Assembly (NCBI GenBank): GCA_018820085.1
Contig: JAHJOV010000034.1
Coordinates: forward strand, 1 to 63,776
Direction of reading: 5' to 3'
Length of the DNA stretch: 63,776 nt
DNA from: Patescibacteria group bacterium
Lineage (GTDB): Bacteria; Patescibacteriota; Minisyncoccia; Portnoybacterales; UBA2143
The notes below the pieces were generated by a model, which saw nothing but the letters and a program-made list of their open reading frames with translations, was not told where the DNA came from and did no database searches. Below are positions 1,363-27,241 of the stretch, in pieces (within the stretch, counting starts at the first letter, position 1; each line of letters opens with the position of its first letter). The translations under genes were made by a program, and so were the position numbers.

Positions 1363-1452
<90 letters not shown>

Positions 1453-2085: not shown

Positions 2086-2125
2086 ATTTGACCAAAACCC
2101 TTAAAAATGGTATTTTAAGCCATAT

Positions 2126-3637: not shown

Positions 3638-3639
3638 CA

Positions 3640-3963: not shown

Positions 3964-3977
3964 TAGGATAAGAATAA

Positions 3978-4048: not shown

Positions 4049-4066
4049 CAAGTTTGACAAAATACT

Positions 4067-4149
4067 GCCGAGGTGGTGAAATGGCAAACACGCATGACTT
4101 AAAATCATGTGGGCGCAAGCCCTTGAGGGTTCGAGTCCCTCTCTCGGCA
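4067..4149 (+). tRNA. tRNA-Leu (anticodon TAA)
   Basis: Acceptor GCCGAGG/TCTCGGC (one G-U), anticodon stem CATGA/TCATG with loop CTTAAAA, long variable arm, T-arm GAGGG-TTCGAGT-CCCTC. Confidence 0.9.
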
Positions 4150-4154
4150 CAATA

Positions 4155-4184
4155 TAAAAAAGACCCGATGTTGGGTCTCTTTTA
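4155..4184. terminator. Bidirectional hairpin terminator (tRNA cluster / 3D-domain gene)
   Basis: A-run, then stem AGACCC(4161-4166)/GGGTCT(4173-4178), then T-run. Sits between convergent transcription units. Confidence 0.7.
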
Positions 4185-4655: not shown

Positions 4656-4699
4656 ATTTTTTTGTCAAATTAAAAAACCCCGCTTTGGGATTTGTCTAC

Positions 4700-4728
4700 A
4701 TACTAACATATCCAATCCATTTTGTCAA
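4700..4728 (-). promoter_or_regulatory. Sigma70-like promoter for 3D-domain gene
   Basis: Minus strand TTGACA (4728-4723), 17 nt spacer, TAGTAT (4705-4700). Confidence 0.5.
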
Positions 4729-4752
4729 GGGTTTTTGGGCGTTTTTAATATC

Positions 4753-4827
4753 TGGAGCGGGTAGAGGGAGTCAAACCCTCATTATCTGATTGGCAACCAG
4801 ATGTAATAATCGCTATACGATACCCGC
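4753..4827 (-). tRNA. tRNA-Gly (anticodon GCC)
   Basis: Reverse complement folds: acceptor GCGGGTA/TACCCGC, anticodon loop TTGCCAA, T-arm GAGGG-TTTGACT-CCCTC, CCA encoded. Confidence 0.85.
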
Positions 4828-4828
4828 G

Positions 4829-4903
4829 TGGTGCCGAGGGTGGGGGTCGAACCCACTACCTCTTCCTTTTCAGGGAAGCACTCTACCGTTGAGTTACCTC
4901 GGC
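4829..4903 (-). tRNA. tRNA-Phe (anticodon GAA)
   Basis: Acceptor GCCGAGG/CCTCGGC, anticodon stem CTTCC/GGAAG with loop CTGAAAA, T-arm GTGGG-TTCGACC-CCCAC, CCA encoded. Confidence 0.9.
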
Positions 4904-4918
4904 ATAAATTTAATTGTG

Positions 4919-4990
4919 TGGACCCAGAGAGATTCGAACTCTCGACCTCCTGGCTGCCAGCCAGATGCGCTACCGCTGCGCTATGGGCCC
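4919..4990 (-). tRNA. tRNA-Ala (anticodon GGC)
   Basis: Acceptor GGGCCCA/TGGGTCC with the G3-U70 Ala identity pair, anticodon loop CTGGCAG, T-arm GAGAG-TTCGAAT-CTCTC. No CCA. Confidence 0.9.
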
Positions 4991-5009
4991 TTTTATAGCT
5001 TTAACCGAG

Positions 5010-5083
5010 TACCCTCGGCAGGAATTGAACCTGCGAACCTGCGCGTTAGGAGTGCGCTGCTCTATCCTCTGAGCTACGAGGGC
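5010..5083 (-). tRNA. tRNA-Arg (anticodon CCT), slightly non-canonical
   Basis: Acceptor GCCCTCG/CGAGGGT (G1-U72), anticodon loop CTCCTAA, T-arm GCAGG-TTCAATT-CCTGC. My fold needs an A31-C39 mismatch and a 6-nt variable loop. Confidence 0.7.
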
Positions 5084-7250: not shown

Positions 7251-7269
7251 TCTCAATCATATTAACCGT

Positions 7270-7371
7270 TTAACCGTGTTTTGATAAACCGCATTCATGA
7301 CATGTTTTACGAGACTTTTTGTTAGTGGCCCCGCACTTTTTACATTTCCAGCAACCCCTATTTGACATCAT
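7270..7371 (-). CDS. 33-aa zinc-ribbon miniprotein with RanBP2-type zinc-finger spacing
   Basis: Below ORF-track cutoff. Minus strand has GAGGAGGGGGG then ATG: MMSNRGCWKCKKCGATNKKSRKTCHECGLSKHG*. The pattern W-x-C-x2-C-x3-N-x6-C-x2-C is present, with a strong SD and its own terminator. Confidence 0.6.
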   Translation of the reverse strand: MMSNRGCWKCKKCGATNKKSRKTCHECGLSKHG

Positions 7372-7425
7372 CCCCCCTCCTCAATCTTTAAACAGGTTAA
7401 TAAAAAATAACTATATATTTTAAAA

Positions 7426-8034
7426 TTACTCCATTATTCCATTTAAGTCAACATCATACAATACTTCTTCCTGAACTAAACGATATTTAACAATTTCACT
7501 TGGTTTAAACCAAATCTTAATTTCTTTATTCGCTTCTTCTGAACTACCTGAGGCATGAATTAAATTTCTAACTGCTCGTCCATCAATATCAGCTAAAATA
7601 ATAGAATCAAGAGTTAAATCTCCCCTAATGGTACCAACATCTGAAGTTAATGGTTCAGTGCCACCAGTAATTTTCCGAACAATACCAACTGCTTCATTGC
7701 CTTGCCAAACCATAGCCACGACTGGCCCAGCAGATAAATATTTCTTTAAAGTTTCTAAAATTCTTAATCCACATTTTTTAGAATCGCTAAAAGGCAATTT
7801 TTTACCTCTTTTCTTATAAGAAGCAATAGATTTATTTCCAACTGCTTCCAACCAACCTTTATCCATAAGATAGTGTTGTTCAACTAATTTTGTGCTTGGC
7901 GTAAAAAATTTTAAACCAACTAATTTTAACCCAGTTCGTTCATAGCGATGAATAATCTCGCCAATTAAAGAACGCTGGACTCCATCCGGCTTAATTAAAA
8001 CTAAAGTTTTTTCTTGAGGTCTATTGTTTTTCAT
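7426..8034 (-). CDS. ndk: Nucleoside-diphosphate kinase (with internal insertion)
   Basis: LVLIKPDGVQRSLIGEII..., SGPVVAMVWQG, and catalytic-His context NLIHASGS. It is 202 aa versus about 140-150 typical. Confidence 0.85.
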   Translation of the reverse strand: MKNNRPQEKTLVLIKPDGVQRSLIGEIIHRYERTGLKLVGLKFFTPSTKLVEQHYLMDKGWLEAVGNKSIASYKKRGKKLPFSDSKKCGLRILETLKKYLSAGPVVAMVWQGNEAVGIVRKITGGTEPLTSDVGTIRGDLTLDSIILADIDGRAVRNLIHASGSSEEANKEIKIWFKPSEIVKYRLVQEEVLYDVDLNGIME

Positions 8035-11682: not shown

Positions 11683-13793
11683 TCTTTCTTAATCTTAAAT
11701 ACTTTTCTCTCTTTAAACTCCTCCCTTTTGCCAATATGCCATTGCTGAACTGGTCTAATGTATCCAACTATTCGTGAATACACTTCACAAGGCTGTTCAA
11801 TAACACATTTAGGACAAATAAAGTGTTCTCCAGCAATATATCCATGGTGAGGACAAATTGAAAAGGTTGGCGTTAAAGTAAGATAAGGCAAATGAAATTT
11901 GCTAAAAATCTTCTTGATTAAACTTTTAACTGACTCTATATCATTAATTTGCTCACCCAAAAATAAATGCATAACTACTCCACCTGTATATTTCACCTGA
12001 ATATCATCTTGTAATTTAAGAGCTTCAAAAATATCATTCGTGTAATTAACTGGCAACATAGTTGAATTTGTGTAATAGGGAACTTCTTTGGTTCCAGCTG
12101 TAATGATCTTAGGAAATTCTTTTTTATCCTTTAAAGCTAAACGATATGATGTTCCTTCGGCTGGTGTGGCTTCAAGATTGTAAAGATTATCAGTTTCTTT
12201 CTGATAACCAACCAAACGATCTCGCATAAAATCTAAAATCTCTAAAGAAAACCTCTTTCCTTGATTAGAGGCAATATTAACGCCTATAAAATTTAAAAGA
12301 CATTCATTCATACCAACTAAACCAATAGTTGAAAAATGATTACCGTAATAATCGCCTCGTATTTTCTTGACTTCAGCTAAATAATATTTTGAATAAGGAT
12401 ATAATCCATTATTCATAAAATTATCTAAAACTTTCCTCTTAATTTCTAAAGAACTCCTAGCCAAATCCATTAATTCAGCTAAACGACTAAAAAATTCTTT
12501 TCGTGTCTTAGAAAGATAACCCAATCGAGGTAAATTAACTGTAACCACACCAATTGATCCAGTTAATGGATTAGCTCCAAACAATCCGCCACCTCGCTTA
12601 TAAAGCTCTTTATTATTTAAACGTAATCGACAACACATAGAACGAACATCATCTGGACTCATATCTGATTGGATAAAATTTGAAAAATAGTTAACACCGT
12701 ATTTAGCTGTCGCCTCCCACATTGCATCAAGAGCTGGATTGTCCCAATCAAAATCATTAGTAATGGAAACTGTAGGAATAGGAAAAGTAAAAGGCCGACC
12801 ATTTTTATCCCCCTCTGTTAAAACTTCATAAAAGGCCTTATTAAGCATATTCATCTCCTCTTGAAATTCACCGTAATTTTCTTTTTGTATTTTACCTCCA
12901 ATAATAACAGGTTGATCAGCATAAACCGAAGAAGGCTTAGTATCTAAAGTAATATTTATAAAAGGCGTTTGAAATCCGACCCTGGTTGGCACAGCGCAAT
13001 TAAACAAGAATTCCTGCATAGCTTGTTTAACTTGATTATAGTTTAAATTATCATAACGAACAAAAGGAGCTAATAAAGTATCAAAATTACTAACTGCTTC
13101 AGCTCCAGCCGTTTCTCCTTGAAGAGTATAAAAAAAGTTAACTAATTGACCCAGGGCAACTCGTAAATGTTTAGGCGGTTTTGATTCAACCTTTCCTTTG
13201 ACTCCGCTAAAGCCACGTAATAAAATATCAAACAAATCCCAACCCTGACAGTAACAACTCAAACTATCTAGATCATGAATATGAAAATCACCACTGGCGA
13301 CTACATCCCTAATCTGCTTGGGATAAATCTTGTTAAGCCAATACCTTTTAGCCACTCTGGAAACAATATAGTTATTCAATCCTTGCAAAGAATAAGCCAT
13401 GTTAGCATTTTCTTTAACTTGCCAATCTGATTCTTGAAGATATTGATCAACCATTTCCACTTCTTCATCAATAGCTGTAGCCGATTCTCTAGTTCGTCGT
13501 CTCTGTTCACGATAAAGGATATATGACTTAGCTGTTTCAGAATAATCATTAATAATTAAAACCTCTTCAACAATGTCTTGAATCTGTTCAATTTGGAGAA
13601 TATCTTCTTTTTTAAATCTTCGGCTTAAAAGATCAATTACTTGATCTGATAATTTTTGAGCAACTCTTTTTCCACCCTCTTTAGTAGCAGTTAGGGCTTT
13701 AAAAATTGCATCTGTAATTTTAGACTGGTCAAAATCTAAAGCACGACCATCTCTTTTTCTGATCTGATTAAATTTTATTTTTTTCTCAAGCAT
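11676..13793 (-). CDS. nrdD: Anaerobic ribonucleoside-triphosphate reductase
   Basis: N-terminal ATP-cone (IRKRDGRALDFDQSKI), C-terminal Cys cluster CPHHG...CPKC, and glycyl-radical motif YSRIVGY. Confidence 0.95.
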   Translation of the reverse strand: MLEKKIKFNQIRKRDGRALDFDQSKITDAIFKALTATKEGGKRVAQKLSDQVIDLLSRRFKKEDILQIEQIQDIVEEVLIINDYSETAKSYILYREQRRRTRESATAIDEEVEMVDQYLQESDWQVKENANMAYSLQGLNNYIVSRVAKRYWLNKIYPKQIRDVVASGDFHIHDLDSLSCYCQGWDLFDILLRGFSGVKGKVESKPPKHLRVALGQLVNFFYTLQGETAGAEAVSNFDTLLAPFVRYDNLNYNQVKQAMQEFLFNCAVPTRVGFQTPFINITLDTKPSSVYADQPVIIGGKIQKENYGEFQEEMNMLNKAFYEVLTEGDKNGRPFTFPIPTVSITNDFDWDNPALDAMWEATAKYGVNYFSNFIQSDMSPDDVRSMCCRLRLNNKELYKRGGGLFGANPLTGSIGVVTVNLPRLGYLSKTRKEFFSRLAELMDLARSSLEIKRKVLDNFMNNGLYPYSKYYLAEVKKIRGDYYGNHFSTIGLVGMNECLLNFIGVNIASNQGKRFSLEILDFMRDRLVGYQKETDNLYNLEATPAEGTSYRLALKDKKEFPKIITAGTKEVPYYTNSTMLPVNYTNDIFEALKLQDDIQVKYTGGVVMHLFLGEQINDIESVKSLIKKIFSKFHLPYLTLTPTFSICPHHGYIAGEHFICPKCVIEQPCEVYSRIVGYIRPVQQWHIGKREEFKERKVFKIKKEC

Positions 13794-13830
13794 AGATGTA
13801 TTTTACTCCAATAAAAAATAGAAGTAAACA

Positions 13831-13864
13831 GAGACAAAAAACACCCCACAACACTGCAGGATGT
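13831..13864 (-). terminator. Possible terminator after ftsZ
   Basis: Minus strand ACATCC-loop-GGGGTGT followed by TTTTTT. The stem is short with one G-U pair. Confidence 0.4.
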
Positions 13865-13879
13865 TATCATTGCCAAAAA

Positions 13880-15016
13880 CTATTTCATCTTCCTTCTAAT
13901 GAAGGCGGGAATATCCCATTCGCTTTCTGACTCTTCAGTTATTGGAGCTGTCGTTTCTCTTGACTTAAAGTCTGTCTTTTTCGTAATATGTTGAAGATTA
14001 GATTGATTGATAGGTGAGATATCTTGAATCCTAGTTTCGCCCAACTTTTTATTAATTATTTCTTCATCAAAGCCAGTAGCAATAACAGTAACTTTGATTT
14101 CTCCTTTCTTTAACTTGTCATCCATAACAGCGCCGAAAATAACTTTAGCCTCTGGATCAATTGATTCAGTAATAACTTTAGCGGCATCGTTAATTTCAGT
14201 CATAGATAGATCAGGTCCACCACTAATATTAAAGAGAACTCCCTTAGCTCCATCAATTGAAAGTTCAAGAAGTGGTGAATTGACAGCTGCTTTAGCCGCT
14301 TCAACTGCTCGATCTTCACCAGTAGCTCGACCAATTCCCATTAAGGCTGAACCAGTGTTTCCCATAATTGCCTTAACATCAGCAAAATCAACATTAACAA
14401 TACCAGGTGTAATAATTAAGTCAGAAATACCTTGAACAGCCTGTCGTAAAACATCATCAACTACTGCAAAAGCATCGAGTAAAGGTGTTTTGCGATCAAT
14501 AAAGGCAAGTAGTTTATCGTTAGGAATAGTAATTAAAGTATCAACTCTATCTTTAAGTTGAGCTAACCCTTCTTCAGCAATTCGGGCTCGCTGTTTTCCT
14601 TCAAAAGAAAAAGGTTTAGTTACAACAGCAACAGTAAGAGCTCCTGAATCTTTAGCTGCTTCAGCAATAACTGGACCAGCCCCACTACCAGTACCACCAC
14701 CTAATCCGTAAGTAATAAAAACCATATCAGCGCCTTTGACTGCTTCATGAATTTCATCACGATTCTCTTCAGCTGCCTGACGACCTATTTCCGGATTCAT
14801 ACCAGCGCCCAATCCTTTAGTTAGATTTTTACCAATATGAAGTCGCTCAGGCGCCTTGACGTGGTGGAGATCTTGAGCGTCGGTATTGATAGCCACAAAA
14901 TCAACACCTTGAATTTTACAGGCTAACATTCTAGAGATACTATTGCCTCCGCTTCCTCCAACACCAACTACTTTAATTTTAGCAAAAGTTTCTACGTCTG
15001 GTCTTATTTGTGCCAT
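13880..15016 (-). CDS. ftsZ: Cell division protein FtsZ
   Basis: Tubulin signature GLGGGTGSGAGPV. ORF-track TTG start (15028) trimmed to ATG 15016 (MAQIRPDVE...). Confidence 0.95.
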   Translation of the reverse strand: MAQIRPDVETFAKIKVVGVGGSGGNSISRMLACKIQGVDFVAINTDAQDLHHVKAPERLHIGKNLTKGLGAGMNPEIGRQAAEENRDEIHEAVKGADMVFITYGLGGGTGSGAGPVIAEAAKDSGALTVAVVTKPFSFEGKQRARIAEEGLAQLKDRVDTLITIPNDKLLAFIDRKTPLLDAFAVVDDVLRQAVQGISDLIITPGIVNVDFADVKAIMGNTGSALMGIGRATGEDRAVEAAKAAVNSPLLELSIDGAKGVLFNISGGPDLSMTEINDAAKVITESIDPEAKVIFGAVMDDKLKKGEIKVTVIATGFDEEIINKKLGETRIQDISPINQSNLQHITKKTDFKSRETTAPITEESESEWDIPAFIRRKMK

Positions 15017-15119
15017 AATAATAAACAAAGAGGAGTCCCTAGTCCCCCCTCAATGCATTTAAATATATGTTAAAATCTTATTTAGAAAATTATCACAATT
15101 ACGAAAATAATGCAAGTGT

Positions 15120-16364
15120 TTAAGGCAAAAATCCACGAAACCAGTGTTTGAGTTTACCAATCGTTGAGCCAACCGAAAATTCAGGAAGAGAAATACCTTG
15201 ACTGCCTGATTTTTTCTGACTATCCATATTCCAAAGAACTAAACCAATAGCTGTAGCAAAAGACGGATCTTCAATTTCATCAACAATTCCTTCCAACTCC
15301 ATTGGAAAGCCAACTTGAACTGGTAACTTTAATTCTGCTTTAGCTAAATCAACTAAACCTGGTACTTTAGCACCACCACCTAAAAGAACTACTCCAGCTG
15401 GTAATAATCCTTGTCGATCAATCTTTTTCAACTCTTTATTAGTTAACTCTAAAATTTCGCTAAGACGAGCCTCTACTATTTCAACTACTTGAACTCGAGG
15501 AATTATACCCGTCTCGCGAGAACCCATCTTAGCTAAATCAATTACATCTTTTTTGTTAATTTCTGAAAGTAAAGCCGAACCATATTCTAATTTAACTTTT
15601 TCTGCTAGATCAATATCACTTCTTAAACCAATAGCAATATCATTAGTAATATGAGCTGAACCAACTGGCAAAACACAACTATGAATAATATTACCTTCTT
15701 CAAAAACTGTTATCCCAGCTGTTCCTCCGCCCAGATCTAAGACCAGGACGCCTAATTCTTTTTGTCTTTTACTTAGAGCTGCCCGACTAGCCGCTAAAGG
15801 GGCTAGAACTAATTCATCTATTTCTAATCCTGCTTCTGAAATACATTTAGTCAGATTTTTAATAAAAGGGCTTGAACCCTCAATGACTAAAGCATCTACT
15901 TCTAAACGAACTCCATTCATACCAACTGGATCTTTAACACTATTTTGTTCATCAACTAAAAAGCCTCGAGGAATAACGTGAATAATTTCTCTATTAGGTA
16001 AGACTGAAACAGCTGAAGCAGCAGTCATAGCTCGATCAACATCTTCCTTAGAAACTTCTCCATCAGCTCGTGAAATCGCAATAACTCCCTTGCTAATTCT
16101 AGGAGTAATATGATTACCGCTTAAACTAACGACTACTCGATCAATAGAAATACCGCTGTTTCTTTCTGCTTCTTGAACCGATTCACTAATATTCTTAACT
16201 GTTTCTTCAACATCAACAACTACTCCTTTGCGTAAACCAAAAGAAGGTGCTTGACCTATACCAAGAATCTGCGGCTTAGTTTTATCAGCCCGTATTCTAG
16301 CAACAACTGTTCTAATAAAACAGCTGCCTACATCTAATCCAGCAATAATAGTTTCTTTTGGCAT
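15120..16364 (-). CDS. ftsA: Cell division protein FtsA
   Basis: Actin-like ATPase (GLDVGS..., LDLGGGT, VLLGGGA), immediately upstream of ftsZ. Confidence 0.95.
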   Translation of the reverse strand: MPKETIIAGLDVGSCFIRTVVARIRADKTKPQILGIGQAPSFGLRKGVVVDVEETVKNISESVQEAERNSGISIDRVVVSLSGNHITPRISKGVIAISRADGEVSKEDVDRAMTAASAVSVLPNREIIHVIPRGFLVDEQNSVKDPVGMNGVRLEVDALVIEGSSPFIKNLTKCISEAGLEIDELVLAPLAASRAALSKRQKELGVLVLDLGGGTAGITVFEEGNIIHSCVLPVGSAHITNDIAIGLRSDIDLAEKVKLEYGSALLSEINKKDVIDLAKMGSRETGIIPRVQVVEIVEARLSEILELTNKELKKIDRQGLLPAGVVLLGGGAKVPGLVDLAKAELKLPVQVGFPMELEGIVDEIEDPSFATAIGLVLWNMDSQKKSGSQGISLPEFSVGSTIGKLKHWFRGFLP

Positions 16365-16372
16365 TTGACACG

Positions 16373-17468: not shown

Positions 17469-17714
17469 CTATTTACGTTTTCCCCACTTAGGTTCTTCCT
17501 CCAAAAGACCTAACTTTCTTAATTTTTCTTTTTCTCCAACGATTTTGACTCGTCTTAAAGCGCTATTCCTTCTTTCTGTTTTACTTTTTTCTTTTTCTCT
17601 AAATCTTGATTTACGAGCACGAATCAAAACGCCACTTTGTTGAATCCTTCTGGAAAAGCGTCTTAATAAACTTCTAGTTGTTTCTCCTATTTTTTTCTTA
17701 ACTTCGATAGCCAC
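17469..17714 (-). CDS. rpsU: 30S ribosomal protein S21
   Basis: Small, very basic protein (LLRRFSRRIQQSGVLIRARKSRFREK). AAGGAGG sits 8 nt before the in-frame GTG at 17714, so the ORF-track start 17723 was trimmed. Confidence 0.7.
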   Translation of the reverse strand: MAIEVKKKIGETTRSLLRRFSRRIQQSGVLIRARKSRFREKEKSKTERRNSALRRVKIVGEKEKLRKLGLLEEEPKWGKRK

Positions 17715-17734
17715 ATGATTCACCTCCTTTTCTT

Positions 17735-18481
17735 TTAGTAATTAACATCATCTCTTGTCCTTGATTTTTTAATTATTTCAAAAGCTTCCTCAGCCGAATC
17801 AACTAAATGGTACAAATCCTCGTCTTTTTTGTCGATAAATTTGTAATGCTGATAAACTGTTTCTTCAATCCATTTAGCAAATGGCTTCCAGTAATCATTA
17901 CCGACGCAAACAATCGGAATATATTGAGGCATCTTTTCTGTCTGAATTAGAGTTAAAATTTCAAAAAATTCATCTAAGGTACCGAATCCACCTGGGAAAA
18001 AAATATAGGCCTGGGCTGAATAAGAAAGCATTATTTTTCTAGTAAAGAAATAATGAAAACCCATTGCTTTTTTAATATAATCATTAATTCTTTGTTCATA
18101 TTTCAATTGAATATTTAAACCGACTGAATCTCCTTTTTTTGATTCATAAGCACCACGATTAGCTGCTTCCATAATTCCAGGACCTCCGCCTGAAAAGACA
18201 GCGAAATTTTCATCAGCCAACATTTTAGCAAGTTTTTTAGCTTCTTGATAATAAGGATTAGAAGGTATAGTTCGAGCTGAACCAAAAAAAGTAACTGACT
18301 TTTTAAAATCACTTAAAAACTCAAAACCATCAACAAATTCAGCCATTATTCTGAAAATACGCCATTGAACTGACTCTTTAAAATCATCTCTCTCTTTTAA
18401 ACTCTCTCCTTGAGCAATTTTAGGAAGTTTTGAAGCTGGAACTAATATTCTCTTTTTTAATTCCTCTTGATGTTTAGTCAT
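17735..18481 (-). CDS. LOG-family (TIGR00730) Rossmann protein
   Basis: GGGPGIMEAANRGA and PGGFGTLDE motifs. Confidence 0.85.
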   Translation of the reverse strand: MTKHQEELKKRILVPASKLPKIAQGESLKERDDFKESVQWRIFRIMAEFVDGFEFLSDFKKSVTFFGSARTIPSNPYYQEAKKLAKMLADENFAVFSGGGPGIMEAANRGAYESKKGDSVGLNIQLKYEQRINDYIKKAMGFHYFFTRKIMLSYSAQAYIFFPGGFGTLDEFFEILTLIQTEKMPQYIPIVCVGNDYWKPFAKWIEETVYQHYKFIDKKDEDLYHLVDSAEEAFEIIKKSRTRDDVNY

Positions 18482-18485
18482 ATTT

Positions 18486-19874
18486 TTAATTAAGTTTACT
18501 ATTTTTATTGTTTTTTGTCAAAATGATTGATTGACCTAATACTGGAACAATAACATTCAAACCTAAATCTTGGGTTATCTTATCAGATAAAACTTGAGAT
18601 GGATTTTCTTCACCATGACAAACAAAAACTTTTTTAAGTTGAGAGGATCTTTTGGATATACCACCAACCCATTTGAGTAAACTTTTCTGATCAGCATGTG
18701 AAGAATAACCATCAACTCTAGCTATTTCCGCGTTAACTTCAACATTATGACCTAATATTTTAACATTTTTAGCCCCTTCAAAAATTTTTCTACCTAAAGT
18801 TCCTTCTACCTGATAAGTGACAAACAAAAGCATGTTTTTAGGATCAGATAAATATCTTAATTCATGATGGATAATTCTACCTCCTTGAGACATACCCGAA
18901 CCAGCGATAATAATCTTTGGACCAGCCACTTCATTTATTTCCTTAGATTTTTTAGTTGTTAATGTTAATTCTAAACCAGGAAAATTAAAAATATCATCAC
19001 CTGAAGAAAAAAGATCATAAGCCTCTTGATCATAATATTCAGGATATTTCCTGTAAATCTCTGTTAATTTAATAGCTAAAGGACTATCAACAAAAATAGG
19101 GACTGATGGAATTTTTTTATTTTCAACTAAATCATTAAAGTGATAAAGCAACCGTTGAGTTCTTTCTAAAGCGAAACTAGGGATTAACAAAACTCCATTC
19201 CGATTTATTGTCTTTTCAATAACCTCTTCTAGTAATTCTCTGGTATTACCCCTAACTTCGTGAATCCTATCTCCATAAGTTGATTCAACAATTAAATAAT
19301 TGGCATCCTCTATCTCAGCCGGATCATTAATAATTGGAGCTTGAGGATAACCGATGTCACCAGAAAAAACAATTTTAATACCTTTGGCCTCTAATTCAAC
19401 ACTAGCTGAACCTAAAATATGCCCAGCTTCTCTAAATTTAAATTTAATCTGATTACCTAAATCAACTTCCTCTCTATAGCCAACTGCTTCAAATCTATCC
19501 ATTAATTCTTTAATTTGTCGGCCATTCCAATTAAAACTTAAACCCTTACGGACTGCTTTTCGATGCAAGATTTTCTGACTATCTTCAAGCATAAAACCCA
19601 CAAAATCAACTGTTGGAGCTGTAGCAAAAACCTTACCTTTAAAACCATCGTTAAACAACTTAGGTAAACGACCAGTATGGTCAAGATGGGCGTGAGTAAT
19701 TAAAACAAAATCAATATCCTCTACCCGATAAGGAAAAGGTTCGTAATTTTTCTCTTCTATTCTTCTTGGTCCCTGAAAAAGACCACAATCAATCAAGATT
19801 TTTTTATCCCCGATTTCTAATAAATAGTTAGAGCCAGTCACCATTCTAGCTGCCCCATGAAAAGATAGTTTCAT
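18486..19874 (-). CDS. MBL-fold beta-CASP ribonuclease (CPSF73/RNase J-like)
   Basis: HAHLDHTG motif, followed by a beta-CASP-type region and C-terminal ...GYSSHAD. Confidence 0.8.
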   Translation of the reverse strand: MKLSFHGAARMVTGSNYLLEIGDKKILIDCGLFQGPRRIEEKNYEPFPYRVEDIDFVLITHAHLDHTGRLPKLFNDGFKGKVFATAPTVDFVGFMLEDSQKILHRKAVRKGLSFNWNGRQIKELMDRFEAVGYREEVDLGNQIKFKFREAGHILGSASVELEAKGIKIVFSGDIGYPQAPIINDPAEIEDANYLIVESTYGDRIHEVRGNTRELLEEVIEKTINRNGVLLIPSFALERTQRLLYHFNDLVENKKIPSVPIFVDSPLAIKLTEIYRKYPEYYDQEAYDLFSSGDDIFNFPGLELTLTTKKSKEINEVAGPKIIIAGSGMSQGGRIIHHELRYLSDPKNMLLFVTYQVEGTLGRKIFEGAKNVKILGHNVEVNAEIARVDGYSSHADQKSLLKWVGGISKRSSQLKKVFVCHGEENPSQVLSDKITQDLGLNVIVPVLGQSIILTKNNKNSKLN

Positions 19875-22184: not shown

Positions 22185-22248
22185 GAGGTCGGACCTTATT
22201 TTGCCGAACCTCTGCTGAGGTGCGGACAAAATAATGTACGACCTCTAA
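22185..22248. repeat. 64-bp palindromic element (type I, inverted orientation, one degenerate arm)
   Basis: GAGGTCGGACCTTATTTTGCCGAACCTCTGCTGAGGTGCGGACAAAATAATGTACGACCTCTAA. Confidence 0.85.
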
Positions 22249-22273
22249 ACACCACCTCTAAACAAAACCCCCT

Positions 22274-23545
22274 TTATTTCTTTAATCTCTTTTTAATTTT
22301 CGCAATTACCTTACTTAAAGGTACTGTTTCCTGACTACTAGAATTCATATCTCGAATAATAATCGTCTCATCTAAGGCTTCTTTTTGCCCTAAAATTAAA
22401 GCAAAACGAGCGCCCATTTTATCAGCTCTTTTTAATTGAGCTTGCATAGTATTACGACTAAAAGAACTAGCTACTCCTAGACCAGATCGACGAAGCTCTT
22501 CAAATAGTTTTAAAGATTTTTTCTTACCTAATTCACCTAATTGAATAAGGAAAATTATTGGCTTGGTTCTAGTATTAATCTTAATACTTCTTTCCTGTAT
22601 TAAATTAATCATTCTATCTAAACCTATAGCAAAACCAACTCCTGACATATCTTTACCACCCAATAGTTTAATCAATCCATCATAGCGACCGCCTCCGGCC
22701 AAAGCGATTTGACGACCTTCTTCATCATCGGGCCAAATTTCAAAAACCGTCTTGGTATAATAGTCTAATCCTCGAACTAAATGAGGATTTAAAATGTAAG
22801 GAATTTCCATCTCGTCTAGATATTCTAAAACACTTCTAAAATGACTATGACAATCATCGCAAAGATGATCGATAATCTGAGGAACGTTTTCAGCTATCTT
22901 AATACATTTAAGTTCCTTACAATCCAACAATCTTAAAAGATTTCGTTGAGCGCGTTTCTGGCAATCGCTACAAAGATGTTTTTTCTTGCTTCGATAAAAA
23001 CTGACTAACATTCTTCGATAATTAGGTCGACAACGAGAACAACCAATACTGTTAATTTGAGTAATTAGATTTTTTAAACCTAAATCCTTACTAATTGAGA
23101 AGAATAATTGAATTAACTGAGCATCTAAAATAGGATCCTTTTCACCAATAACCTCAAAATTAGCTTGATAAGATTGTCGATATCGTCCTTTTTGTTTTCT
23201 TTCATAGCGAAAAATTGGACCAAGACTAAAAAGTTTTACTGGATGAGGCAAGCGAGATAATCCATTTTCTAAATATGCTCGAATAACAGCCGGAGTAAAC
23301 TCTGGACGCAAAGTTAATTGATCGCCTCCTTTAGTTCTTAAACTATACATTTCCTTTTCAACGATATCAGTGTATTGACCAGTTCCTTTGATAAACAAAT
23401 CAACCTCCTCAAGAATTGGTGTTTCCAAAAAACCAAAACCATAATCCTTAGCTAAATTCTTAACTACTTGCTTAATTTTTTCCCAATAAACCTGATCTTC
23501 AGGCAGAATATCCCTCATTCCTTTAGGAGCTTGAAATTTTGGCAT
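22274..23545 (-). CDS. hisS: Histidine--tRNA ligase
   Basis: MPKFQAPKGMRDILPED..., class II motifs, and GGGRYDGL. Trimmed to ATG 23545, just after the lepB stop. Confidence 0.95.
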   Translation of the reverse strand: MPKFQAPKGMRDILPEDQVYWEKIKQVVKNLAKDYGFGFLETPILEEVDLFIKGTGQYTDIVEKEMYSLRTKGGDQLTLRPEFTPAVIRAYLENGLSRLPHPVKLFSLGPIFRYERKQKGRYRQSYQANFEVIGEKDPILDAQLIQLFFSISKDLGLKNLITQINSIGCSRCRPNYRRMLVSFYRSKKKHLCSDCQKRAQRNLLRLLDCKELKCIKIAENVPQIIDHLCDDCHSHFRSVLEYLDEMEIPYILNPHLVRGLDYYTKTVFEIWPDDEEGRQIALAGGGRYDGLIKLLGGKDMSGVGFAIGLDRMINLIQERSIKINTRTKPIIFLIQLGELGKKKSLKLFEELRRSGLGVASSFSRNTMQAQLKRADKMGARFALILGQKEALDETIIIRDMNSSSQETVPLSKVIAKIKKRLKK

Positions 23546-23549
23546 AAAT

Positions 23550-24086
23550 TTAAAATATTTTAGCTGTATCGAAAGGCCAAGCCCGCAACCAAACTCGACC
23601 AATAATATTATCTCCTGGTAAAACTCCCCATTGACGTGAATCAGAACTTTTTCCGCGATTATCACCCAAGACAAAATATTCATCTTCGCCTAATTTAAGA
23701 TGTATATTACCTTGAGTAATAATTCCTTCTGATAAATAAACTGACTCATCTAATAATTGACCCTCAGGGAACTCCTTATTATAAATAATAACTCGTCCAT
23801 CTTTAACCTCAACTGCTTCATCAGGTAATCCAATTATTCTCTTGATATAATATTCTGATGGATTAATTGGATTTTTGAAAACAATTACTTGACCCCGAGT
23901 TGGATCTTCAAAACGATAGCCAATTTCATTAATAACCAAATATTGCCCATTATCAAAATTAGGTTCCATAGAGGAACCCCGAACAAAAAACGGTTGAATT
24001 AAAAAATATCTAATAGGAATTATAATTGCTAAGGAAATAACAACAATCTTAACAACTTCCCAAATAAAAATAAATACCTTTTTCAT
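23550..24086 (-). CDS. lepB: Signal peptidase I
   Basis: N-terminal TM, GSSMEPN (catalytic Ser box), and GDNRGKSSDSR box. Confidence 0.9.
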   Translation of the reverse strand: MKKVFIFIWEVVKIVVISLAIIIPIRYFLIQPFFVRGSSMEPNFDNGQYLVINEIGYRFEDPTRGQVIVFKNPINPSEYYIKRIIGLPDEAVEVKDGRVIIYNKEFPEGQLLDESVYLSEGIITQGNIHLKLGEDEYFVLGDNRGKSSDSRQWGVLPGDNIIGRVWLRAWPFDTAKIF

Positions 24087-24095
24087 AGTTAATTC

Positions 24096-24124
24096 ATTCT
24101 AACTTTTTTCACAAAAAAAATCAA
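24096..24124 (-). promoter_or_regulatory. Sigma70-like promoter for lepB-hisS (near-leaderless)
   Basis: Minus strand TTGATT (24124-24119), 17 nt spacer, TAGAAT (24101-24096), then 9 nt to the ATG. Confidence 0.45.
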
Positions 24125-24170
24125 ATTTTTGCAATCTTTGCACTTACTTATTGAACTAACCCTTTTTGAA

Positions 24171-24199
24171 TTGACAAATATATCGCATTATGCTATATT
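24171..24199 (+). promoter_or_regulatory. Sigma70-like promoter for the DGR target gene
   Basis: TTGACA (24171-24176), 17 nt spacer, TATATT (24194-24199). Confidence 0.55.
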
Positions 24200-24272
24200 A
24201 ACAGAAAGTTAAAATTCTTTGAAATATGAATATTTTTTAGAAAAAACCAAAACCAAGCAAAGGAGGTTTGTC

Positions 24273-25004
24273 ATGACAAAGAAAGAATTGTGTAAAGATC
24301 AGCGCGAAGGATTGATTGCCAAGCTAACGGCCTTTTTCAAAGGCCTGGGAGCCGAGGTAATCGACGATGTGGTGGCCGAGGCCAAAAAACAGGCCAATGC
24401 CGAAACGGTTGAAGACCGCAAGAATGGACTGGCCAAACTATTTGATAACCAGCTCGAAACCCTGAAATCCCAGAACTGCCCGCAAGCCATTCTGGAAGCG
24501 TTCCAGAACAAAAAGAGCGATGTGCTCAACAAGGCGGCCGAGATGGAAATTCCCGAAGGGAATATTCCTTTCGTGCCAGTCATCCCCCGTTCTTACATGG
24601 GTATTTACGGACTTATGCCCATGGTCCGCAATGACGACAAGATGGGTTACACCTACCTTAATCCGAACGAGATGACCGACAACGAAGAAGAAATCCCAAA
24701 AAATCCATATTACATCTATGATATTGAGCCCGGGAAAGTCACCCTCGGTAAATCGCCAGAAGACGCCGAGAAGATTATCAAAAAACAGAACCGTCTGCGC
24801 CACATCACTGATGAAGACATTGCTGTTTGCGTTCACACGGACGTCTTATCGGATCACTATCTCTGGAGCACCGGTTCCCGCTACGAGCATTCCGACGAGG
24901 TGCCGTTTGTCTGCCTCGGCGGCGACGGGCCGGTGCTCGTCTGGGTCGGCGCTGGCAGCTCGTTTGACGGGTGGGGTTCCGCTTCGTGCCGTAGTCGGGC
25001 TTAG
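24273..25004 (+). CDS. DGR variable (target) protein, orphan N-terminal region, C-terminal VR
   Basis: AGGAGG at 24261-24266 then ATG 24273 (ORF-track start 24219 trimmed). Visibly GC-rich compared with neighbours. The last 42 codons are the VR. No signal peptide or TM segment is apparent. Confidence 0.85.
   Translation: MTKKELCKDQREGLIAKLTAFFKGLGAEVIDDVVAEAKKQANAETVEDRKNGLAKLFDNQLETLKSQNCPQAILEAFQNKKSDVLNKAAEMEIPEGNIPFVPVIPRSYMGIYGLMPMVRNDDKMGYTYLNPNEMTDNEEEIPKNPYYIYDIEPGKVTLGKSPEDAEKIIKKQNRLRHITDEDIAVCVHTDVLSDHYLWSTGSRYEHSDEVPFVCLGGDGPVLVWVGAGSSFDGWGSASCRSRA
24872..24996 (+). repeat. DGR variable repeat (VR)
   Basis: 125 bp matching the reverse complement of 26762-26886. 24 mismatches by hand count, all at TR adenines, falling in 15 codons at positions 1-2. 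The last 26 nt (GTGGGGTTCCGCTTCGTGCCGTAGTC) are invariant. Confidence 0.9.
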
Positions 25005-25096
25005 GTTCTTGGCGCCTTGGACCTTTTGGTTTTTTGTTCTTTGTTTTCGCCGAAGGCGACCGCTACAAATTTTTACGCTAAACGCGTACACCCCAA

Positions 25097-25135
25097 GGGT
25101 AGGTCAGAAATGATCTACCCTTCTTTATTTTCAAT
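25097..25135 (+). terminator. Terminator of DGR target gene
   Basis: GGGTAG-GTCAGAAATGAT-CTACCC followed by TTCTTTATTTT. Confidence 0.6.
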
Positions 25136-25157
25136 AATTTTTATAGTACAATAAAAA

Positions 25158-25306
25158 TGCTGCCTATATTGACTGGGAATACCCCATGGGCGATTGCTTC
25201 TTTAGTTCCAATTGCGGGCTGAAAGGGGCAGTCGCACTTCCACAATTGGAGCCCTTTGGGGTTTCAGTCAATGTGGGCAGCAGGTCGGCTGTCCCTTTTT
25301 GTTTTT
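25158..25306 (+). ncRNA. Candidate structured RNA (rod-like, nested helices) with competing intrinsic terminator
   Basis: P1 is 25158-25175/25265-25282 (18 bp, two U-G pairs valid only in plus sense). P2 is 25181-25191/25251-25262. P3 is 25207-25214/25243-25250. The apical stem is 25217-25221/25229-25233. The terminator stem 25275-25281/25288-25295 plus T-run shares its 5' arm with the P1 3' arm. Confidence 0.4.
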
Positions 25307-26355
25307 CATGGATTTTTCAGCCACTCCCACATTTTATGTCTTAGCTCTTGCTCCAACTTATAGCTATTGGCGTGACTTAATACTCCTAGATAAGAATTGA
25401 ATGATTGCATCAGTGTTTTCTCATCTATTTTCCCTCTTTTATATTCTTTAACTCTTTGCCTCAATTTCTTGAAAATTCTTTGTTTGGTTTTAGTTCTTAA
25501 AACAATGGCTTTGGGCAGGATTACATAACCCAGAAAATCAATTCCCTGCTGGTATTTGCGGATAGTGACTTTGTCGGGATGAAATGATAATTTCAGTTCT
25601 TTTTTAAGAAAAACTTCAATCTGATTCTTTAAATCAGATAAGTAGTCCTGATTATGATGAACAATAATAAAATCGTCGGCATAGCGAACATAATATTTCG
25701 CTTTGAGCCGATCTTTAATAAACTGGTCCATTTCATTCATATAAACATTGACCAGTATTTGCGAAGCAAGATTGCCAATCGGAGTTCCCTTTTTATTTCT
25801 TTTGGTGGTGAATTCCGACTCAAAACTTTTGACAATCTTTTTTATCAGCCATAAAGCGTTTTTATCTTTAATTCTTTTAGCAATAATATTCATTAATATT
25901 TTGTGATCAATAGTTGGAAAGAACTTCTTAATATCACACTTTAAAACAAAACATTTGCCGTAGGTTTGGTAAACAGCTTTTAACATTTTGTCCAACTTGA
26001 TAACCGCCCGGTGAGTTCCTTTTTCCTTTCGGGATGAATAAGAGGTATAAACAAAGGTCGGATTAAAAATAGGGTAGAGTTTTCGGTGGATGGCATGATG
26101 AACGATTCTGTCTCTGACCGTTGCTTTGTGGATGTGCCTTCTTTTTGGGTCGTTAATGTAAAAACCGACATATTGGCCATGCTTGTATCTCTTGCTTTTT
26201 AATTCCTGGTGAAGGGCAAACAGATTATCTTCCAGATGAAGCTCAAATTCCTGAACATCTAATTTCTCTCTCTTGCCTTTCTTGAATTCATCCCAAGCCA
26301 AAAGCAAATTCTCCATTGAAATTATATCCTTAAAAATGTCTTTATAAATCTTCAT
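25306..26355 (-). CDS. DGR reverse transcriptase
   Basis: TPIGNLASQILVNVY (the IGxxxSQ motif characteristic of DGR RTs), YADDFIIV, GIDFLGYVI. Alignable by eye to Bordetella phage Brt. I prefer ATG 26355 (MKIYKDIF...) over the TTG 26394 of the ORF track. Confidence 0.9.
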   Translation of the reverse strand: MKIYKDIFKDIISMENLLLAWDEFKKGKREKLDVQEFELHLEDNLFALHQELKSKRYKHGQYVGFYINDPKRRHIHKATVRDRIVHHAIHRKLYPIFNPTFVYTSYSSRKEKGTHRAVIKLDKMLKAVYQTYGKCFVLKCDIKKFFPTIDHKILMNIIAKRIKDKNALWLIKKIVKSFESEFTTKRNKKGTPIGNLASQILVNVYMNEMDQFIKDRLKAKYYVRYADDFIIVHHNQDYLSDLKNQIEVFLKKELKLSFHPDKVTIRKYQQGIDFLGYVILPKAIVLRTKTKQRIFKKLRQRVKEYKRGKIDEKTLMQSFNSYLGVLSHANSYKLEQELRHKMWEWLKNP

Positions 26356-26357
26356 AT

Positions 26358-26717
26358 ATGCAAAATTTAAACCAAATTCAAAGCGAGGCGCCAATCCTCA
26401 AAAAGACAACTGATCTTTATAAGGAGTTCTATGAGTGTTTAAAAACCTTTCCCAAAAAAGATCAACATATGCTGGGCAAGAAATGCGAGGAAAATATCAT
26501 TGATTTTATGGAATTGATATTATCCGCAGTCAGCTCGTACAAGCAAGAAAAAAAGGCAAAGCTCTTAGAAGCGAATAATAAGTTTGATCTTTTAAAGGTT
26601 TTACTTAGAATGGCCCGGGAGTTTAAGATGATAGATAATAAAAAATACCTAAATCTGGAAGAAAAGATTCAGGAAATCGGCCGAATGCTCGGCGGCTGGA
26701 TTAAATCCCTAAACTAA
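26358..26717 (+). CDS. avd: Avd-like four-helix-bundle protein (DGR accessory variability determinant)
   Basis: 119 aa and helical. FPKKDQHMLGKK...LLRMAREFKMI...IGRMLGGWIK is typical of Avd / 23S-rRNA-IVS four-helix-bundle proteins. Adjacent to the RT and TR. Confidence 0.8.
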   Translation: MQNLNQIQSEAPILKKTTDLYKEFYECLKTFPKKDQHMLGKKCEENIIDFMELILSAVSSYKQEKKAKLLEANNKFDLLKVLLRMAREFKMIDNKKYLNLEEKIQEIGRMLGGWIKSLN

Positions 26718-26743
26718 AAGCGTCCTCCAATTGGACGCTTTTT
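26718..26743. terminator. Hairpin terminator after avd (also 20 nt downstream of TR on the other strand)
   Basis: GCGTCC (26720-26725)/GGACGC (26733-26738) then TTTTT. Flanked by an A-run, so it is formally bidirectional. Confidence 0.6.
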
Positions 26744-26761
26744 GTAAATTCTGATTTTAGA

Positions 26762-26886
26762 GACTACGGCACGAAGCGGAACCCCACTTGTCATTCGAGT
26801 TGTCAGCGTTGTTCCAGTTGAGCTTCGGCTTGTCGTCGTTGAGGTAGACATTCGGCACCTTGTCGGAATGCTTGTAGCGGGAACCG
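26762..26886 (-). repeat. DGR template repeat (TR)
   Basis: The reverse complement carries A at every VR-mismatched position. Variable codons are AAC/AAT/AAG/GAC/TAC with no A in third positions. By hand count, 24 of 33 adenines are substituted in the VR. Confidence 0.9.
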
Positions 26887-27212
26887 TAATTTTACTGATT
26901 CTCGTCTATTACCACTGGAAGCAGAGGCTTACTTCCCGCCAAGGCGGGACTATATACTCAAGCTTCCTGTATTTAATCTGGCGGCAGTCAAAAAAGACGC
27001 CCGCTCTAAGAACCAGTAAGTAGTATCTAAAATCTCTCTTACACACTCATGGCAACCGTAATTACTATGATTCTGGCAATTTTAGAGACTTAGGATTTCG
27101 GCGACCCCGATCCTTGAACCAAGGTGCAGTAGCCTACTTTCATTACTGTTTATACATCTTTTAGTTCTAAAATGCCACCCACATATTACATTACATATGC
27201 CCCCGCACCAAA

Positions 27213-27241
27213 TTGAGTAAAAAAATCAAATCTGTTATAAT
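27213..27241 (+). promoter_or_regulatory. Sigma70-like promoter for LCP gene (leaderless type)
   Basis: TTGAGT (27213-27218), 17 nt spacer, TATAAT (27236-27241), then 7 nt to ATG 27249. The ORF-track TTG start is this -35 box. Confidence 0.55.

Follow-up and report, generated by a model that had tools for sequence, protein, structure and literature searches.

The window, which is the whole 63,776-nt stretch of DNA analysed here (contig JAHJOV010000034.1 of a Patescibacteria group bacterium), carries a cassette of ~3.1 kb in which the genes of a reverse transcriptase (RT), an Avd accessory protein and a DUF5701 protein lie together with two copies of a repeat, the template region (TR) and the variable region (VR). 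The features of the cassette, from left to right, are the following:

24114-24126, no strand: left copy of the 13-bp direct repeat AAAAAAATCAAAT (D12), target-site-duplication-like, 100% identical to the right copy
24127-27218, no strand: inserted segment, which sister genomes lack at this intergenic site (locus comparison)
24163-27143, no strand: conserved cassette core (cassette comparison)
24171-24199, plus strand: sigma-70-like promoter of the target gene, TTGACA-17-TATATT with TG (11/12 matches)
24273-25004, plus strand: target (variable protein) gene, 243 aa, Pfam DUF5701 (profile match)
24872-24996, plus strand: VR (TR/VR alignment, allele comparison)
24971-24996, plus strand: IMH-like anchor of 26 nt, the same in VR and TR, its first 20 nt adenine-free and GC-rich
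25095-25122, plus strand: intrinsic-terminator-like hairpin following the target gene (conserved in other cassettes, with compensatory changes)
25150-25305, plus strand: hairpin element of ~150 nt and very high stability that separates the target terminator from the RT stop; only some cassettes have it
25306-26355, minus strand: DGR reverse transcriptase, 349 aa, with IGNLASQ and YADD (translation, profile and structure-sequence matches)
26358-26717, plus strand: Avd accessory protein, 119 aa, in opposite orientation to TR and RT, its start 2 bp from the RT start
26762-26886, minus strand: TR (TR/VR alignment; same sequence in the window and in the near-identical contig L001)
27219-27231, no strand: right copy of the 13-bp direct repeat, the same as 24114-24126

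The VR forms the final 42 codons of the target open reading frame. In the pairwise alignment, it matches the reverse complement of 26762-26886 over 125 nt without gaps and with 24 mismatches, and the minus-sense TR copy holds an A in 24/24 of them. The original prediction, based on a count by hand, had claimed just this pattern with zero non-A differences, and the alignment agrees. With 33 A among the 125 nt, 24 positions drawn at random would all hit an A with a probability of 1.2e-18. The adenines were also said to be replaced by G, T or C, of which the first two are found (A>G 17, A>T 7), but C is not (A>C 0). The changes are spread over 15 codons (AAG, AAT, TAC, AAC, GAC), and a recount of the 33 TR adenines in the target frame, with 13 at the first codon position, 20 at the second and 0 at the third, gives the same codons and the same restriction to positions 1 and 2. 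The 3′-terminal 26 nt, described earlier as invariant, are indeed identical in both copies, and the homology ends abruptly at 24996/26762. Because the 3′ ends of TR and VR match in the alignment, an IMH/IMH* difference within the repeat is absent. The fold of 24965-25060, where a hairpin or cruciform after the VR was sought, is no better than shuffles (z -0.48). According to the text of Wu et al. (PMC5758913), the GC-rich inverted repeat after the IMH occurs in only 34% of DGRs and is therefore not a universal feature of them. An adenine-tolerant scan of both strands of the window detected no VR or target other than the known pair, and adenine-only TR/VR mismatches are also present in 5 further distinct cassettes.

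The RT start codon is the ATG at 26355, the ATG of avd (26358) follows at a distance of two bases, and the longer TTG-start reading frame reaching 26394 is probably not used. The IGNLASQ and YADDF motifs named in the original prediction are present in the translation. The best match among solved structures is 8ub7 (2e-37, 132.7 bits), and the best group II RT reaches 97.8 bits. We take 8ub7 to be BPP-1 bRT, since its length of 328 aa fits and this is the complex described in the cryo-EM preprint. Judged by such match scores, the RT is of the DGR lineage, nearer to bRT than to the group II or retron RTs. The gene at 26358-26717, previously called Avd-like, exceeds the cut-offs of both Avd profiles (NF033474 with 94.6, cut-off 80; PF22296 with 84.6, cut-off 40), and a sequence search of its product against the PDB gave no matches. 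A locus of another kind, in which a retron, group II intron or defence RT happens to stand beside an ordinary diverged inverted repeat, would agree with the partial, sub-threshold similarity of the RT to the group II, Drt3a, Drt2 and retron models. Those scores are, however, far under the curated cut-offs (177 vs 300, 80 vs 200 and 62 vs 235). The adenine-only mismatch pattern (P~1e-18), the adjacent Avd equivalog and the same pattern in 50+ related loci also speak against it, and the probability of such an explanation is practically negligible.

The activity of the element can be followed through the comparison of assemblies. Between the window and L001, the VR differs at 16/125 bases, all of them at TR-adenine positions, while outside the VR there are 5 differences in ~4,575 bases and the TRs are the same. 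The VR heterogeneity limited to TR-adenine positions, which had been proposed as a check on population reads, is thus seen between independent near-identical assemblies instead. Among the sister cassettes, the RT is intact in the P0002 cluster, whose 8 proteins are the same outside the last 45 residues and differ from P0002 at 8-12 positions within them, which corresponds to at least 8 VR alleles. In the P0005 cluster, the RT is split by a frameshift in three independent assemblies; its VR is unvarying, 1-14 changes lie outside the VR, and 2 TR/VR mismatches are at non-adenine positions. Such a pair of clusters is a natural demonstration that VR turnover tracks RT integrity: the intact RT is accompanied by many VR alleles on unchanged backgrounds, and the frameshifted RT by a frozen VR gathering ordinary mutations.

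These comparisons of sequences support recent activity of the DGR in the window lineage. The opposite possibility is a fossil, in which the parts are intact by sequence, the lineage has lost mutagenic homing and the differences between VR and TR date from the past. Just two VR alleles are known in the window lineage (P0119=P0120 vs P0001), and decayed cassettes and orphan DUF5701 genes are common among its relatives, as a fossil would have it. Yet the two alleles are separated by 16 changes at TR adenines against 5 in the surrounding 4.6 kb and 0 in the TR, the RT, Avd, TR and RNA helices are all intact, and a truly broken relative (L003 type) displays the opposite, namely a frozen VR and non-adenine mismatches. 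A fossil is therefore very unlikely, and the cassette can be regarded with high confidence as a chromosomal, recently active DGR of the Patescibacteria (CPR) type. The DGR kind itself and the TR / reversed avd / RT type of Patescibacteria are already known, and as a DGR alone the locus adds little, since such elements are known to be enriched in CPR bacteria.

The borders of the insertion bear on a possible mobility of the whole unit. The empty S26/LytR sites in the sister loci L002 and L003 contain one copy of the 13-bp repeat, and no comparable duplication was seen at the sites of the L002 and L003 cassettes. The cassette core is 88% identical to that of L002/L003, the flanking housekeeping genes 68-75%, and the cassette is found in at least 7 chromosomal contexts. 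Its conserved core begins on the left with the target promoter. Neither a transposase nor an integrase was found, as the family-matched reading frames of the insertion are the target, RT and Avd only, and the ends of the insertion, judged by reading the cassette comparison, are not inverted repeats. That the adenine-mutagenic RT itself had retro-mobilised the entire cassette was considered and rejected, because the substitutions between cassettes are symmetric transitions with no adenine bias.

The target gene has a GC content of 52% vs ~33% for the genome. Its product consists of a helical N-terminal part and a C-terminal alpha/beta domain, with no obvious signal peptide, and matches PF18959 (DUF5701) with 40.2 bits (cut-off 27.4) over model positions 20-203 of 206; 115/118 of its homologues are already annotated with this family. 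Two AF2 models were obtained with pLDDT of 92.5 and 87.6. Their Foldseek neighbours are mostly C-type-lectin-like domains, the fold of the variable proteins Mtd, TvpA, TaqVP and archaeal AvpA, and the target resembles these proteins in its C-terminal VR on a beta-hairpin-rich alpha/beta domain. The matches are weak (best E 0.013, TM 0.35-0.65, none at E <= 1e-3), and none of the four proteins gives a significant structure or sequence match to the target. Known DGR variable proteins are not among the 50 best target structure matches listed, and the sequence search against the PDB gave no matches. Such models suggest a fold that is at best distantly C-type-lectin-like, and the best guess would be a binding protein that is soluble and bears a divergent lectin-like tip. 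Another difference is the C-terminus, which usually reads ...GFRC/V... in variable proteins and here ends with WGSASCRSR. No mention of DUF5701 was found in the DGR literature searched, which included the supplements of Roux et al. Naming DUF5701 as a recurrent DGR target gives the domain a likely role as a variable ligand-binding protein.

The RNA of the element is predicted to be read from the minus strand, and its parts are listed here in the 5′ to 3′ direction:

27148-27156, minus strand: candidate extended -10-like element TGTATAAAC for the DGR RNA, at the right edge of the conserved core
26887-27141, minus strand: conserved structured leader of the DGR RNA, ~255 nt (conservation, covariation, fold z -3.9)
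27101-27127, 27047-27070 and 26981-27004, minus strand: leader hairpins P1, P2 and P5 (conserved structure)
27020-27034, minus strand: leader strand of helix P3, GAUUUUAGAUACUAC (pairing and covariation), predicted primer strand
27007-27019, minus strand: leader strand of helix P4, UUACUGGUUCUUA, which directly continues the P3 strand and is the predicted counterpart of the cPRT-Stop strand in BPP-1
26960-26980, minus strand: conserved A-rich single strand of the leader (conservation)
26892-26904, minus strand: sequence directly 5′ of the TR, CGAGAAUCAGUAA, partner of P4 (covariation), predicted cDNA stop
26753-26767, minus strand: TR 3′ boundary, GUAGUCUCUAAAAUC, partner of P3, with the predicted first templated base C26768
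26716-26742, minus strand: hairpin directly 3′ of the TR, at the position of the BPP-1 Avd-binding stem-loop

Other cassettes have TGCTAAACT and TGATAAGAT at the position of the candidate promoter element, and the promoter scan made no call at 27148-27156. By analogy with the BPP-1 complex (10.1101/2023.10.23.563531), the hairpin at 26716-26742 may act as the Avd-binding stem-loop, and it looks as if it doubles as a bidirectional terminator for avd. No Rfam family was found on the leader or the TR at gathering and permissive thresholds, the sole match being a chance-level one elsewhere (RT-3, 15 bits vs 40.5, at 25284-25429).

The helices P3 and P4 were examined in two sets of loci. In the derivation set of 10 cassettes, 94% of cells pair, compared to 32-49% when the strands are slid, and double-sided changes occur in 27 pairs, which 0/500 shuffles match. 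In the independent set of 36 loci with the other cassette type, a de novo search recovered P4, with 97% pairing and covariation in 11/12 pairs. P3, whose columns were located there by a complementarity scan, is paired less than P4 (76%), and 11/14 of its pairs covary; 0/500 shuffles reach any of these measures. An RNAduplex-type search for the clamp was dropped because it was too permissive (long internal loops, high shuffled scores), and a strict contiguous-helix scan took its place, in which 32/51 loci beat all 40 shuffles and no signal appeared downstream of the TR in the 51 loci. In the antisense avd sequence downstream of the TR, an Sp-like partner was looked for and rejected, as the scores there equal those of shuffles.

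The proposed mechanism starts with a minus-strand RNA of ~430-520 nt from about 27145, which would include the structured leader, the 125-nt TR and the 3′ hairpin. The RT and Avd would copy the TR into cDNA with misincorporation opposite the 33 TR adenines, and the cDNA would replace the VR, recoding as many as 20 of the final 42 codons of the DUF5701 protein, namely those that contain adenine. We infer that the cDNA synthesis is cis-primed as in BPP-1, from a permuted RNA. The leader strand 27034-27007 would first pair with the TR 3′ boundary, forming a template:primer duplex with priming near C27020 (predicted priming nucleotide C27020/U27019), and at once thereafter with the 13 nt directly upstream of the TR, forming a stop duplex, so that the TR would be looped out between the two helices. 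One leader strand thus seems to pair with both TR ends in the primer/stop topology of BPP-1, but from a position upstream of the TR.

Alternatively, the leader is not a priming device, and the cDNA is primed otherwise, e.g., from downstream sequence or the target DNA. The complementarity would then be a by-product of duplications of the TR boundaries (D4, D15), or serve stability or regulation. The leader does contain direct copies of both boundaries (26754-26765 = 27079-27090; 26879-26902 ~ 27051-27074), the single-sequence minimum free energy fold joins the P3 strand to the internal copy, and the literature searched yielded no biochemical data for any CPR DGR. On the other hand, the compensatory changes keep both helices in loci of entirely different sequence, including the 36 outside the derivation set, and no equivalent complementarity exists 3′ of the TR. 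The strand order, polarity and 0-3-nt spacing match the BPP-1 primer/stop strand. A decoy helix, in which the P3 strand would pair with the copy of the TR 3′ boundary located upstream, was tried as a possible switch. It is 86% paired with zero covariation and is not supported; changes in the leader strand are matched by the TR boundary and not by the decoy. The non-priming explanation retains a small but real share of the probability, and the priming clamp is preferred.

A broader joint reading is favoured at slightly better than even chances. Its first part states that in the whole Patescibacteria clade with inverted avd the DGR RNA would be a circular permutation of the BPP-1 RNA, in which the primer strand, stop strand, short stem-loop, A-rich strand and long stem-loop are shifted from the 3′ spacer to the 5′ leader and the geometry of the RNP is kept. 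According to its second part, the 3-kb cassette, composed of two inward-facing promoters, the target, RT, avd and the RNA, would be a self-contained mobile unit. It would change its place in the chromosome and pass from one lineage to another, and the soluble DUF5701 protein that it diversifies would have a lectin-like fold of a new form. No mention of a 5′ leader with a priming clamp was found in the literature and supplements searched, and such a permuted RNA would have gone undescribed because earlier surveys covered only 40 nt upstream of the TR. If the 5′ primer/stop clamp is true, the cis-priming RNP, known from cryo-EM of one phage system, is conserved in a very distant clade despite the permuted RNA. 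It would also explain how avd can sit inverted between TR and RT, and an RNA of ~430 nt with two small proteins would be a testable, possibly engineerable, mutagenesis module.

The original prediction compared the locus to the mutagenic retrohoming of BPP-1 (mtd-VR/avd/TR/brt). All the defining DGR parts pass the tests, and the likeness extends to the adenine-specific transfer from TR to VR at AAY-type codons, the RT with I/LGxxxSQ and YxDD motifs, the Avd partner and the A-free, GC-rich 3′ end of the repeat. It also includes the predicted RNA, in which one strand would pair with the TR 3′ end and, after a gap of 0-3 nt, with the stretch that directly precedes the TR. Next in the predicted RNA come a short stem-loop, a single-stranded A-rich part and a longer stem-loop, and a hairpin adjoins the TR on its 3′ side. 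The gene-order analogy is loose, because here avd is inverted between TR and RT and the target is encoded past the RT, in the other orientation; the lack of an IMH/IMH* difference inside the repeat and of a significant cruciform after the VR loosens it further. The BPP-1 DGR is phage-borne, while the present cassette is chromosomal, and its target is DUF5701 instead of Mtd. The connectivity of the RNA is circularly permuted, since the primer/stop strand precedes the TR by ~130-150 nt, whereas in BPP-1 it is in the downstream spacer.

The organisation resembles that of the DGRs of CPR bacteria. CPR/Patescibacteria DGRs are reportedly the subject of Paul et al. 2017. The element is cell-encoded, its homologous loci are all in Patescibacteria MAGs, and its target has no signal peptide or characterised domain, as in other CPR DGRs. 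Among 80 relatives of the RT, the TR / reversed avd / RT module is present wherever avd and TR are detectable. Most of these relatives have their VR and target on the strand of the TR and upstream of it, and in contrast the present subgroup has DUF5701 downstream of the RT in convergent orientation. As far as the texts of Wu et al. and Roux et al. go, DGRs of this architecture already abound in Patescibacteria (PMC5758913, PMC8144416). The arrangement TR(-), avd(+), RT(-) in a Patescibacteria host would correspond, from the wording of the text, to type B3 of Wu et al. (PMC5758913), and the cassette is a CPR-type DGR of clade 2 of Roux et al. (PMC8144416).

The variable region (VR, 24872-24996, plus strand) aligns over 125 nt, and without gaps, to the reverse complement of the template region (TR, 26762-26886). 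The two copies differ at 24 positions, and at every one of them the minus-sense copy carries an adenine. The TR contains 33 adenines, and the probability that 24 random positions would all fall on them is 1.2e-18. The gapless alignment and the restriction of the mismatches to template adenines therefore hold as the original prediction had described them. Its further statement that the adenines are replaced by G, T or C has to be narrowed, as the gene copy carries G at 17 positions, T at seven and C at none. When the TR is read in the same frame as the 24273-25004 ORF, its adenines occupy the first codon position 13 times, the second 20 times and the third never, and 15 codons of the VR are recoded; the count of codons and the limitation to the first two positions had both been foreseen, as had the identity of the last 26 nt in the two copies. 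The homology stops sharply on both sides. An adenine-tolerant scan of both strands of the window found no second VR. The proteins of the diversity-generating retroelement (DGR) are encoded between the repeats and next to the TR:

25306-26355, minus strand: reverse transcriptase (RT), which matches RVT_1 and carries the IGNLASQ and YADD motifs
26358-26717, plus strand: accessory gene avd, which scores 94.6 against a cut-off of 80 with the NCBIfam DGR-Avd equivalog and also passes Pfam bAvd

The prediction of an RT with these motifs and of an adjoining Avd-like gene is thereby borne out. Among solved structures the RT matches 8ub7 best (2e-37); this 328-aa reverse transcriptase is presumably the Bordetella phage bRT, and the group II RTs rank behind it. 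With the group II, Drt and retron models the RT scores far under the curated cut-offs. The start codons of RT and avd lie back to back on opposite strands, divergent and 2 bp apart (26353-26360), so a transcript reading through from the TR to the RT would be fully antisense to the avd mRNA. Such an overlap could couple or oppose the expression of the two genes.

The DGR is surrounded by housekeeping genes, including those for HisRS, signal peptidase, LytR, Pth, DprA, tRNAs and tmRNA in a genome of ~33% GC. The tmRNA gene (56076-56421, tag AKPNLAFATA) and the two tRNA clusters, with eight tRNA genes in total (1213-5083), confirm the window as ordinary chromosome and not phage or plasmid. All homologous loci come from Patescibacteria MAGs. 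Roux et al. (PMC8144416) described a Patescibacteria-restricted clade of cellular DGRs, whose targets usually lack recognisable domains, and the element of the window belongs to this clade. Comparison with 80 metagenomic loci (RT 49-79% identical) gives the same gene order, TR, opposite-strand avd and RT, in every locus where avd and TR are detectable. In most of these relatives VR and TR share a strand, with the VR upstream, and the target is not DUF5701. It is only in the subgroup closest to the window, with RTs 54-79% identical, that a DUF5701-like target lies beyond the RT and converges with it.

The target of the window passes the Pfam DUF5701 threshold, and 115 of its 118 homologues had already been annotated as DUF5701, a family not named in the DGR literature searched. 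The homologues vary mostly within the C-terminal motif GSRYxxxDxVPxVYLxxDxPxLxWxxxDxSxxxWGSASCRSR. A sequence search of the PDB with the target gave no relative. The AlphaFold models, which are confident (pLDDT 92.5 for the whole protein, 87.6 for residues 92-243), place helices in the N-terminal part and an alpha/beta domain at the C-terminus, where the VR folds into beta-strands. The Foldseek neighbours are mostly C-type-lectin-like (Bd2740 CTD, DCAR2, langerin, EMS16, CLEC5A, MBP-A), with TM-scores of 0.35-0.65 and none at E <= 1e-3; no known DGR variable protein is among the best 50 matches listed. The GC content of the target is 50-62%, compared with 29-40% for RT/avd and 30-46% for the host flanks, in all 12 cassettes compared (the window, L002, L003, L011, L012, L040-L044, L078 and L085), and the GC content of most orphan DUF5701 genes likewise exceeds that of their own genomes. 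For many DUF5701 genes no RT, Avd or TR lies within 6 kb, which implies either the loss of the DGR or diversification in trans. Four of the family (L009, L013, L017, L031) adjoin RT fragments only, of 26 to ~180 residues, and their C-termini still look diversified, which suggests decayed cassettes.

The turnover of the VR tracks the integrity of the RT, since varied VRs accompany an intact RT and a fixed VR accompanies a split one. The first case is illustrated by L001, an independent assembly (SRR7058708) colinear with window positions 22220-26919. Of its 4,700 bases, 21 differ from the window: five belong to the HisRS/peptidase region and 16 to the VR, the latter all at TR-adenine positions, and the TRs are identical. 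Similarly, the L002-type target has a 90%-identity cluster of eight proteins that do not differ outside the last 45 residues; within these residues each departs from P0002, a target of this type, at 8-12 positions. The second case is the L003-type RT, which is split by a frameshift into ORFs of 202 and 144 aa in three independent assemblies (L003 11037-12087; also L005 and L015). The three members of the 90% cluster of its target, P0005, share the same VR and carry 1-14 substitutions elsewhere. P0005 was found on contigs from five different samples, and two mismatches of the L003-type TR/VR pair lie off adenines. Both the original observation and its interpretation as a DGR stand: the element of the window is a well-preserved, recently active DGR of known kind. 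Two L002-type targets, P0121 and P0125, which represent two VR alleles, have Tyr instead of the otherwise invariant Cys in WGSASCRSR. The underlying G-to-A change falls where TR and VR are otherwise identical, so adenine mutagenesis would not produce it unless the TR differs too.

The cassette appears to behave as a portable unit. Its core (24163-27143) shares 88% identity with L002 and L003, compared with 68-75% for the flanking housekeeping genes, and it occupies a different site in each; four more cassettes give four more contexts. The sites and boundaries are as follows:

Window: cassette between S26 and LytR
L002: cassette between FtsZ and RNR
L003: cassette between beta-CASP and LDcluster4
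24114-24126 and 27219-27231: perfect 13-bp direct repeat AAAAAAATCAAAT, flanking the DGR insertion in the window
Left edge of the core: target promoter
Right edge of the core, minus strand: putative extended -10-like element for the minus-strand RNA, recognised by its conservation among cassettes
25150-25305: near-perfect hairpin of ~150 nt with a T-run, just past the RT stop codon

The empty S26/LytR sites of L002 and L003 contain a single copy of the 13-bp repeat, and no comparable duplication is present at their own cassette sites. The insertion holds no transposase, and its ends are not inverted repeats by eye. Copying of the cassette by the mutagenic RT was also considered; the substitutions between cassettes are ordinary transitions and so give no sign of it. 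The 25150-25305 hairpin (-72.6 kcal/mol; z -6.3 on the plus and -4.2 on the minus strand) might be a bidirectional terminator or insulator. It also stands beside the RT in L001-L005, L009, L011, L015, L053 and L055, and is absent from the other cassettes of the subgroup. Two neighbouring genes deserve mention. The L002 ribonucleotide reductase (13070-16369, 1,099 aa) has an intein with a LAGLIDADG endonuclease, which its L003 orthologue (17645-19840, 731 aa) lacks. In L041 a ThsB-like TIR-domain gene (7268-7771), encoding a Thoeris-type defence protein, adjoins the cassette, the other contexts being housekeeping genes.

The leader of the DGR RNA, ~255 nt upstream of the TR (27141-26887, minus strand), is conserved even between cassettes whose RTs are 54-66% identical. 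RNAalifold on ten distinct cassettes predicts the leader hairpins P1, P2 and P5 and two long-range helices:

27034-27020 with 26767-26753, minus strand: P3, predicted pairing of the leader with the 3′ boundary of the TR
27019-27007 with 26904-26892, minus strand: P4, predicted pairing of the leader with the segment just 5′ of the TR, contiguous with P3

In this derivation set 94% of the cells are paired, compared with 32-49% when the partners are slid, and 27 pairs show double-sided changes, compared with 5-10 in the slid controls; none of 500 shuffles reached the observed values. A strict search of 51 loci from across the clade located such a bipartite clamp 100-185 nt upstream of the TR, made of unrelated sequences. 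The clamp scores 44 on average, shuffled leaders score 30 and an equally long region downstream of the TR scores ~31 (read from listed values); in 32 of the loci the clamp beats 40 of 40 shuffles. The 36 loci of the other cassette type, unused in deriving the model, form an independent set in which RNAalifold recovered P4 de novo. The explicit test on this set found P4 97% paired, with covariation in 11 of 12 pairs, and P3 76% paired, with covariation in 11 of 14; no shuffle out of 500 reached any of the five measures.

The predicted helices recall the priming RNA of BPP-1 (PMC6182149; 10.1101/2023.10.23.563531). There, the spacer lies downstream of the TR and provides a single strand with two partners. 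Paired with TR117-129 it makes the template:primer duplex, with the 2′-OH of Sp A56 as the priming site; two nucleotides further along, its pairing with the bases immediately upstream of the TR yields the 'cPRT Stop' duplex, and the TR loops out between the two duplexes. Beyond this strand come a short stem-loop, unpaired adenosines, the single-stranded 'thumb ring' and a long stem-loop that binds the RT, and a stem-loop bound by Avd directly adjoins the 3′ end of the TR. In the window, priming is predicted near C27020, and the first template base would be C26768. An earlier survey that covered other DGRs took in only 40 nt on the upstream side of the TR and 100 nt on the downstream side, so a strand at -120 to -150 lay outside its view; our literature search found no description of a 5′ primer/stop strand in DGRs. 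The novelty lies in details: the use of DUF5701 as target, the portability of the cassette and, most of all, the putative permuted priming RNA. All three rest on comparative computation. The CPR leader presents, in the order and polarity of BPP-1, the P3 strand, the P4 strand, the P5 stem-loop, a conserved A-rich strand (26980-26960) and a further stem-loop, and a hairpin directly 3′ of the TR is likewise present. Unlike in BPP-1, where they belong to the downstream spacer, the putative primer and stop strands and the elements that follow them are attached on the 5′ side of the TR. The CPR arrangement would result if the ends of the BPP-1 RNA were joined and the circle were cut between the primer strand and the Avd-binding stem-loop.
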